A stretch of 64,000 nucleotides of DNA, taken from Minisyncoccota bacterium (GTDB lineage: Bacteria; Patescibacteriota; Minisyncoccia; Phycocordibacterales; UBA6065). The stretch lies in NCBI GenBank assembly GCA_036400935.1, contig DASWWW010000001.1, positions 118,375 to 182,374 of the forward strand, read 5' to 3'. A model generated the notes under the pieces. The model saw nothing but the letters and a program-made list of their open reading frames with translations. It made no database searches and had not been told where the DNA came from. Made by a program: the position numbers and the translations under genes. Shown in pieces: positions 49,245 to 49,318 of the stretch (positions are counted from its first letter, which is position 1; every line of letters begins with the position of its first letter).

Positions 49245-49318
49245 GCGCCTGTAGCTCAGTTGGTTAGAGCATCGAGCTTATACCTCGAGGGTCCATGGTT
49301 CGAGTCCATGCAGGCGCA
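49245..49318 (+). tRNA. tRNA-Ile with anticodon UAU (decodes AUA)
   Basis: The cloverleaf folds by hand: acceptor GCGCCTG/CAGGCGC, D-arm GCTC/GAGC, anticodon stem TCGAG/CTCGA with loop CTTATAC, and T-arm CATGG-TTCGAGT-CCATG. No CCA is encoded. Confidence 0.8.

Follow-up and report, generated by a model that had tools for sequence, protein, structure and literature searches.

A tRNA-Ile(UAU) Gene Conserved Downstream of ftsH in Patescibacteria and Its Probable Role in AUA Decoding

The 64 kb stretch of DNA analyzed in this study (64,000 nucleotides, positions 118,375 to 182,374 of contig DASWWW010000001.1 from a Minisyncoccota bacterium; hereafter, the window) contains, at 49245..49318 on the plus strand, a 74 nt tRNA-Ile gene with the anticodon UAU. 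The gene is genuine, and selection holds its anticodon constant. Within the FtsH-defined clade to which the window belongs the gene is universal, and throughout this Paceibacteria-type clade of the Candidate Phyla Radiation (CPR)/Patescibacteria it is a single-copy, vertically inherited housekeeping gene downstream of ftsH; for the window, it is an ordinary housekeeping gene of its lineage. AUA specifies isoleucine in this organism. Our analysis moderately favors tRNA-Ile(UAU) as the main, and probably the only, decoder of AUA, which would then have replaced TilS together with tRNA-Ile2(CAU).

Reading AUA as isoleucine without misreading AUG as isoleucine is a classic problem of the genetic code. 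In bacteria, lysidine is said to solve it, which makes TilS essential, nearly universal, and a proposed antibiotic target, and published surveys count fewer than 20 bacterial genomes with a UAU tRNA as the alternative.

Structure of the tRNA Gene

Three RNA genes were detected in the window by ARAGORN: a transfer-messenger RNA (tmRNA), tRNA-Ile(tat), and tRNA-Ser(gct). The tRNA-Ile gene was called at 49245-49319 (+), with the anticodon at position 35 of the gene, and Rfam RF00005 matched 49245-49318 (+) over model positions 1-71 of 71 with 73.1 bits (gathering score, 29; E = 4e-14). The anticodon T-A-T (U34 A35 U36) occupies 49279..49281 (+) within the anticodon loop C32 U33 U34 A35 U36 A37 C38 at 49277-49283 (+). 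An earlier reading of the window made from its letters (hereafter, the sequence-only reading) had proposed these coordinates, this loop, and a UAU anticodon; ARAGORN, Rfam, and direct reading of the cloverleaf showed all three to be exactly right, and the tRNA scan by which the anticodon could be checked assigned tat, as claimed.

Direct reading gave the acceptor stem GCGCCUG/CAGGCGC, the D stem GCUC/GAGC, the anticodon stem UCGAG/CUCGA, and the T stem CAUGG/CCAUG, with the variable loop GGGUC and the discriminator A73. The usual tertiary nucleotides are complete (U8, A14, G15/C48, G18 G19, G53-C61, U54 U55 C56, and A58), and the gene does not encode CCA. The minimum free energy fold of the single sequence differed from the cloverleaf; such single-sequence folds commonly miss the cloverleaf of tRNAs. 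The cloverleaf was accepted despite this fold because comparative covariation across 51 homologues, described below, supports it. Position 34 is T (49279), whereas lysidine-type tRNA-Ile2(CAU) has C34. Because the TilS system needs C34, the window tRNA cannot be a TilS substrate.

Conservation and Selection in the FtsH-Defined Clade

One genome per species (GTDB representatives) was scanned with a generic tRNA-body pattern containing a fixed CTTATA loop, which gave at least 120 matches; ARAGORN confirmed a tat tRNA in 119 of the 120 matches listed. The window proteins were then compared with the 120 species genomes bearing a UAU tRNA. Among these listed genomes, the UAU tRNA stood beside FtsH in 27, RecG in 20, and SmpB in 16, and in the 27 genomes with FtsH the ftsH gene was mostly directly upstream on the same strand. 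Because this sample had been selected through the tRNA itself, a second sample was anchored on a protein. The C-terminal 260 residues of FtsH recovered 80 metagenome loci at 66-86% identity, and tRNA-Ile(tat) was present in 51 of them. It was found in all loci that reach at least 5 kb past ftsH (33/33) and in 41 of the 45 that reach at least 2.5 kb; all 29 loci lacking it end no more than 4.6 kb after ftsH. No CAU or GAU tRNA was detected in any of the 80 loci.

The window tRNA and 50 distinct sequences from the FtsH-anchored loci were aligned (n = 51) and scored against the cloverleaf. Standard pairs formed in 99.7% of the stem cells, compared with 38-47% when the partners were slid; 17 of the 21 pairs had changed on both sides, and the observed covariation score was reached by none of 500 shuffles. 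In contrast to the stems, which have turned over many times, the anticodon stayed fixed: C32 U33 U34 A35 U36 A37, A73, and the pair U12-A23 were invariant (51/51), and C4-G69 was kept in 47 of the 51 homologues. Position 38 was C in 44 sequences and U in 7 but never A, and other CPR classes have A38 or C38. Repeated turnover of the stems around a fixed anticodon indicates a functional gene that is under purifying selection and vertically inherited.

These data bear on two other origins for the gene. One is that the gene is a pseudogene, reflects an error of assembly or sequencing, or arose by a recent C34-to-T change in a tRNA-Ile2(CAU) gene of this metagenome-assembled genome (MAG) alone, given that a single C-to-T change turns CAT into TAT and that MAGs may hold errors. 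However, the identical tRNA and the identical 561 nt spacer that precedes it occur in three independent Logan assemblies of the same organism from different sequencing runs, TAT was found in 51/51 distinct clade homologues as well as in 119 of the 120 matches listed, and no CAT version occupies the syntenic site in the 80 loci. Together with the strong compensatory covariation, these observations led us to reject this explanation, the chance of which is negligible; a pseudogene, which the sequence-only reading had named as an outcome that would overturn it, is also contradicted by the 73.1-bit Rfam match.

Acquisition from a phage or another mobile element was likewise considered, as phages often carry rare-codon tRNAs and the gene has a partial tRNA repeat upstream and a lineage-specific gene block downstream. 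Yet many lineages have the gene at the same chromosomal site beside ftsH, recG, and smpB, no integrase was found nearby, and the best matches among 50,697 phage records reached at most 81%, a generic tRNA similarity that mostly involved tRNA-Lys. Given the conserved chromosomal synteny and the lack of a close phage match, a mobile origin is highly improbable and was rejected.

Meaning and Usage of AUA

At the 13 AUA codons of the window ftsH, recG, and smpB genes, aligned relatives have isoleucine in 54% of cases, leucine in 19%, valine in 11%, and methionine in less than 3%. This residue profile resembles that at AUU/AUC positions and differs from that at AUG positions, where methionine accounts for 54%; AUA is therefore an isoleucine codon here. 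The codon occurs 60 times in 18 of the 27 confidently identified genes (8.1 per 1000 codons and 11% of isoleucine codons), but at only 2.1 per 1000 codons in tuf, the ribosomal protein genes, and secY. This comparison of AUA usage, which the sequence-only reading had suggested, fits a codon that is served by one low-abundance, single-copy tRNA. On the scale of a recent TilS study, 8 AUA codons per 1000 correspond to the upper end of "medium" usage.

Isoleucine identity was judged from the body of the tRNA. The Ile(GAU) and Ile(UAU) tRNAs of one Parcubacteria genome have common acceptor and T stems, and the body of the window tRNA presumably resembles Ile(GAU)-type tRNAs such as that of E. coli. 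Nureki-type studies reportedly identified A73, A37, C4-G69, U12-A23, C29-G41, and A38 as identity elements for E. coli isoleucyl-tRNA synthetase (IleRS). Measured against these E. coli-defined elements, A73, A37, and U12-A23 are invariant in the 51 homologues and C4-G69 is kept in 47 of them; U12-A23 is common to many tRNAs.

An anticodon alone is no proof of identity, and the elements A38 and C29-G41 are not conserved. AUA might thus have been reassigned, or the tRNA might carry another amino acid, such as methionine, as in many mitochondria. Against this stand the isoleucine, leucine, and valine residues that relatives have at the AUA positions of the window, the conservation of A73, U12-A23, C4-G69, and A35-U36-A37, and the acceptor and T arms in common with tRNA-Ile(GAU). 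Reassignment is very improbable, and we rejected it on the AUA profile, which is like that of AUU/AUC and unlike that of AUG.

By its sequence, the window gene is assigned as a functional minor isoleucine tRNA of the type called tRNA-Ile3(UAU), or tRNA-Ile2 with UAU. Functionally, we place it with the bacterial tRNA-Ile(UAU) class on its sequence features: it combines a canonical, selectively maintained cloverleaf and a genomically encoded U34 A35 U36 with an AUA codon that is in use and means isoleucine. The isoleucine identity elements are retained only in part.

Possible Replacement or Redundancy of the Lysidine System

Whether the UAU tRNA replaced the lysidine system was evaluated through searches for tilS, tRNA-Ile2(CAU), and the IleRS gene. 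Neither tblastn with E. coli TilS nor a PP-loop motif search detected TilS in the window or in 130 loci. A hidden Markov model (HMM) of the TilS catalytic domain, built from E. coli, Geobacillus, and 30 Aquificae sequences, gave no match at E values up to 10 in 1.08 Mb (window and loci) or in 0.84 Mb (FtsH-anchored loci). In a control, a model built from Aquificae only detected E. coli TilS at 1e-39 and Geobacillus TilS at 1e-49; because the HMM is this sensitive, a CPR TilS in the searched sequence would have been seen. Within the window itself, tRNA-modification enzymes, PP-loop ATPases, and CAU tRNAs were all absent. All 19 CAU tRNAs found near UAU genes are of initiator or elongator Met type according to their acceptor ends and anticodon stems, and no Ile2-like CAU tRNA was detected in the window or in approximately 1.9 Mb from relatives. 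In many other bacteria, tilS presumably lies beside ftsH in a tilS-hpt-ftsH cluster, a place that smpB fills here; tilS was not beside ftsH in more than 100 CPR ftsH neighborhoods.

The UAU tRNA may also be a second reader of AUA, with TilS and the lysidine-modified tRNA-Ile2(CAU) kept elsewhere in the genome. Bacteria with both systems exist; two parallel readers have been proposed in Lactobacillus casei, Cyanothece PCC 7424, and Ferrimonas balearica (Taniguchi 2013, PMC3575796). The documented TAT genes of this kind are sporadic and belong to single species, whereas the gene described here is clade-universal and under strict selection, as in lineages that have lost tilS. Strongly reduced genomes such as those of CPR bacteria rarely keep redundancy, and the absence of tilS from its common place beside ftsH, as well as the Met types of the 19 CAU tRNAs, likewise argues against a second system. 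We regard redundancy as possible but doubtful.

Replacement of the lysidine system is favored because clade-wide conservation of UAU has so far accompanied tilS loss (Bifidobacterium and Neorickettsia) and because reduced genomes rarely keep two systems. Several points weigh against it. The approximately 1.9 Mb searched corresponds to about 9 kb per genome, mostly from the same neighborhood, and a randomly placed tilS would give only about 2 expected hits, so that zero hits has P ~0.15; because this sample is too small, the missing TilS hits cannot decide absence. Coverage of this organism's own genome for tilS, tRNA-Ile2(CAU), and IleRS amounts to 64 kb. Two E. coli IleRS identity elements are not kept, C29-G41 being G29-C41 here and variable in the clade, and A38 being C38. 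Moreover, some bacteria keep both tilS and a TAT gene (Taniguchi 2013, PMC3575796). On the sequence searched, the absence of tilS in this organism is plausible.

Neither the window nor any CPR locus contained an IleRS gene, and the tblastn matches at 21-23% identity look like ValRS or LeuRS. An IleRS gene and tRNA-Ile(UAU) occur in the same 8 kb locus in three of the four archaeal MAG loci from the species scan (L045, L122, and L060); in L045, the two are directly adjacent, an ileS-like gene at 1427-3694 being followed after ~100 nt by the tRNA match at 3796-3841. Short CAU tRNAs of 71 nt, which have a U1-A72 end (TGCGGGG...CCCCGCAA) and whose D arm is reduced, were present in three CPR genomes (L013, 98-168; L029, 1153-1223; and L078, 4723-4793) and may be an unusual initiator type.

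Proposed Decoding Mechanism

In the proposed mechanism, U34 would form a Watson-Crick pair directly with the third base of AUA, without the involvement of a lysidine-modified CAU. IleRS would charge the tRNA through A35, U36, A37 (presumably t6A), A73, C4-G69, and U12-A23, and CCA would be added post-transcriptionally by the CCA-adding enzyme. In the simplest model, misreading of AUG would be avoided as in Mycoplasma mobile, by an unmodified or minimally modified U34 together with adaptations of IleRS and the ribosome. The 32-38 pair tunes the strength of the codon-anticodon interaction, and we speculate that the clade-specific C32/Y38 may weaken the U34-G wobble.

The sequence-only reading had regarded the gene as a marker of the decoding strategy of its lineage, which is borne out by the presence of the UAU tRNA in 33/33 informative FtsH loci of the clade. 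It had also offered two routes, the absence of tilS or a U34 modification that prevents AUG misreading. This choice is incomplete: in M. mobile, U34 is unmodified and both IleRS and the ribosome are adapted, and in some bacteria tilS and a TAT gene coexist.

Comparison with Known Systems

The canonical combination of TilS and tRNA-Ile2, in which CAU is converted with lysidine, performs the same task of reading AUA as isoleucine and rejecting AUG, but it needs C34 and TilS. In the cytosol of eukaryotes, tRNA-Ile(UAU) has pseudouridine at positions 34 and 36, and its genes have an intron that is needed for pseudouridylation. The window gene likewise encodes UAU genomically for AUA but has no intron, and bacteria are not known to have such a pseudouridylating enzyme.

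Among bacteria, M. mobile has lost tilS and reads AUA with tRNA-Ile2(UAU), whose U34 is unmodified and whose specificity comes from the ribosome and from Arg865 of IleRS, at the E. coli W905 position (Taniguchi et al. 2013, PMC3575796). The window system is similar in its genomically encoded UAU that reads AUA, its reduced genome, the loop C32 U33 U34 A35 U36 A37, and its single minor tRNA. In contrast to M. mobile, which is one species inside a tilS-positive group, the window gene is conserved through a deep clade; it also has C38. Bifidobacterium and Neorickettsia, with tRNA-Ile(UAU), a eukaryote-type IleRS, and no tilS, are the best evolutionary analogue, since their UAU tRNA is conserved across a clade rather than in one species. 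There, the loss of tilS and the type of IleRS are established, whereas in the window organism the loss of tilS is plausible.

A tilS-deletion suppressor of Bacillus subtilis, in which the tRNA-Ile1 gene was mutated from G34 to U (Fabret 2011; Koehrer 2014, PMC3919564), demonstrates that cells without lysidine can still decode AUA if they have a UAU tRNA-Ile. The suppressor is a laboratory product with a fitness cost and some misreading, whereas the window gene is old, natural, and under purifying selection. Outside the bacteria, Nanoarchaeum equitans and Korarchaeum cryptofilum have tRNA-Ile3(UAU) and lack the agmatidine enzyme TiaS. They resemble the window organism in that ultra-small, symbiont-type genomes read AUA with UAU and not with a modified C34, but they belong to another domain, lost another enzyme, and represent an independent origin.

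Distribution in CPR Bacteria and Other Genomes

Named CPR accounted for 74 of the 120 matches listed and covered many classes: Saccharibacteria, Parcubacteria/Paceibacterota, Nomura-, Taylor-, Uhr-, Dojka-, Peri-, Peregrini-, and Woesebacteria, as well as Collier-, Kuenen-, Falkow-, Magasanik-, Morani-, Buchanan-, and Doudnabacteria and WWE3. The remaining labels listed included 16 genomes without a taxon label, 13 third party annotation (TPA) MAGs named "uncultured Gammaproteobacteria", 4 archaea, and a few matches in Chloroflexota, Planctomycetota, Dormibacterota, Firmicutes, Ignavibacteria, Actinobacteria, and Bacteroidota. Of the four small-genome archaea, three are probably DPANN-like, and the UAU tRNAs of all four have C38, like those of the window's clade. 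An informative protein match was obtained for 26 of the 29 "Gammaproteobacteria" or unlabeled loci; in 23 of these 26 the top match was a named CPR locus, typically at 50-88% identity over long proteins, in a reference set that is itself mostly CPR. These matches suggest that many of the 29 loci are also from CPR bacteria.

The CPR share among the 120 matches listed is therefore probably near 80%, a sample estimate that may lean to CPR-like tRNA bodies, as the scan pattern fixes parts of the D and T arms; the known Mycoplasma or Bifidobacterium UAU tRNAs may not fit this pattern. This share greatly exceeds that of CPR among all species, which by our own estimate is below about 10%. tRNA-Ile(UAU) is clearly common in CPR.

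Earlier surveys point the other way for bacteria at large. UAU tRNA-Ile was reported for 19 bacterial species in a tRNADB-CE survey, and the tRNAscan-SE 2.0 analysis counted 17 genomes, which belong to Bifidobacterium, Mycoplasma, and Neorickettsia; a 2021 review describes UAU as lost in prokaryotes. The statement of the sequence-only reading that a genuine UAU tRNA-Ile is rare thus holds for cultured bacteria (19 species; 17 genomes) but not for CPR, in which it was present in 33/33 informative FtsH loci and which account for 74 of the 120 matches listed. No open-access paper was found that combines lysidine with Patescibacteria or the Candidate Phyla Radiation. The type of molecule is already known; its scale, universal in the Paceibacteria-type clade and common across CPR classes, seems under-reported.

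A broader view, which we put forward tentatively, is that CPR as a whole, or most of its classes, may have abandoned lysidine and read AUA with tRNA-Ile(UAU). They would then be by far the largest bacterial group without lysidine, convergent with TiaS-less archaea of the DPANN type; the C32/Y38 signature of the Paceibacteria-type clade might block the reading of AUG, and the upstream element described below could be a second feature. If the replacement is true genome-wide, a radiation with a sizeable share of bacterial diversity has an "exceptional" solution as its norm, and claims that TilS is universal and essential need revision. Annotation pipelines should then expect no Ile2(CAU) tRNA in CPR genomes, and cultivable CPR bacteria would be a natural system for studying how U34 is kept from wobbling to G.

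Several further observations were made in the scanned genomes. The 13 "uncultured Gammaproteobacteria" genomes (L012, L027, L029, L047, L063, L075, L083, L084, L099, L117, L120, L125, and L128) have CPR-like UAU tRNAs, and in most of them the neighboring proteins best match named CPR loci at 55-81% identity, so that their taxonomic labels look wrong on sequence grounds. One of the 13 is a complete chromosome of 931 kb (OZ246400.1). Several genomes labeled 'Candidatus Saccharibacteria' by the same submitter likewise have ftsH loci of the Paceibacteria type. In other CPR classes, the UAU tRNA lies in small tRNA clusters and not after ftsH. It directly follows an elongator tRNA-Met(CAU), 4 nt apart, in L013 (330-404 and 409-) and is clustered with an elongator tRNA-Met(CAU) in L029 (1- and 84-157); tRNA-Val(GAC) is near the UAU tRNA in 21 loci.

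Upstream Element Resembling the tRNA 5' End

A partial copy of nucleotides 1-24 of the tRNA, identical at 21 of 24 positions and with the D-loop CAG changed to GTC, was identified by alignment at 49174..49197 (+), 71 nt upstream of tRNA-Ile(UAU). The same kind of element, N7-TAGCTGTYTTGG, precedes the UAU tRNA by 41-74 nt in seven further lineages (L025, L058, L092, L134, L157, L200, and L204), always with the D-loop CAG changed to GTY. In 7 of the 8 cases, the first 7 nt of the element follow the acceptor strand of their own lineage at 6-7 of 7 positions. The core motif occurred 17 times in 3.8 Mnt (both strands), 8 of them upstream of UAU tRNAs, and only 8 of 171 tRNAs have the element. In some leaders the acceptor-like strand closes a hairpin; other leaders do not fold in this way. 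A perfect copy (24/24) of the tRNA 5' end was observed at -119 in L135.

The element may be a decayed tandem duplicate whose similarity gene conversion maintains, a leader element that arose from such a duplicate, or an att scar. In the window, a decayed tandem copy may begin with 49174-49197 and extend to 49244, and the 24 nt fragment may itself be a pseudogene remnant.

Genes Neighboring the tRNA in the Window

The genes around the tRNA are arranged in the order tmRNA (-), smpB (-), ftsH (+), a 561 nt spacer, tRNA-Ile(UAU), a block of a Nudix gene, a CYTH gene, and a 188-amino-acid open reading frame (ORF) (+), and recG (-). The tmRNA gene (45857..46248, -; ARAGORN and Rfam RF00023 with 78.6 bits) adjoins smpB (46285..46731, -; Pfam SmpB, E = 4e-48), which is divergent from ftsH. 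Its tag peptide is unusually long, with 21 residues (AKSSVSPFFGAKDFSFAYAIA). As a mechanical ORF, ftsH extends over 46434..48683 (+) and matches Pfam Peptidase_M41, AAA, and FtsH_ext; its true start probably lies close to 46.75 kb, since ~100 codons at the beginning of the ORF overlap smpB on the other strand.

In relatives, the distance between ftsH and the tRNA varies from 9 nt to several kb. The spacer of the window is lineage-specific and contains an ORF of 130 amino acids at 48707-49099 (-), called as 100 amino acids in the Logan contigs. It has no Pfam match but includes a Nudix-like 'YWDLPYG' stretch and may be a Nudix gene fragment.

Downstream of the tRNA, a helix-turn-helix (HTH)-Nudix gene (49329-50048, +; Pfam), whose start codon lies 10 nt after the tRNA, is followed by a CYTH gene (50132-50674, +; Pfam) and by the 188-amino-acid ORF (50750-51316, +), to which no family was assigned. 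This block (49329..51316), between the tRNA and recG, is lineage-specific and is not beside the tRNA in relatives. Many HTH-Nudix relatives at 63-75% identity come from Patescibacteria/Parcubacteria MAGs. The Nudix gene was considered as part of a conserved unit with the tRNA and rejected, as relatives at 68% identity have it elsewhere with no tRNA beside it. Beyond the block, recG (51890..54076, -; Pfam RecG_wedge, DEAD, and Helicase_C) is the downstream neighbor on the opposite strand.

The remaining genes of the window comprise tuf, the S10 and spc ribosomal protein operons, secY, adk, map, and a variety of genes for housekeeping and envelope functions. The S10 operon is split at two sites. 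A secreted protein of 528 amino acids and an ORF of 122 amino acids lie between rpsJ and rplC (6418-8447), and three ORFs lie between rplB and rpsS (11382-12902), one of which (11914-12474) looks by eye like a peptide deformylase.

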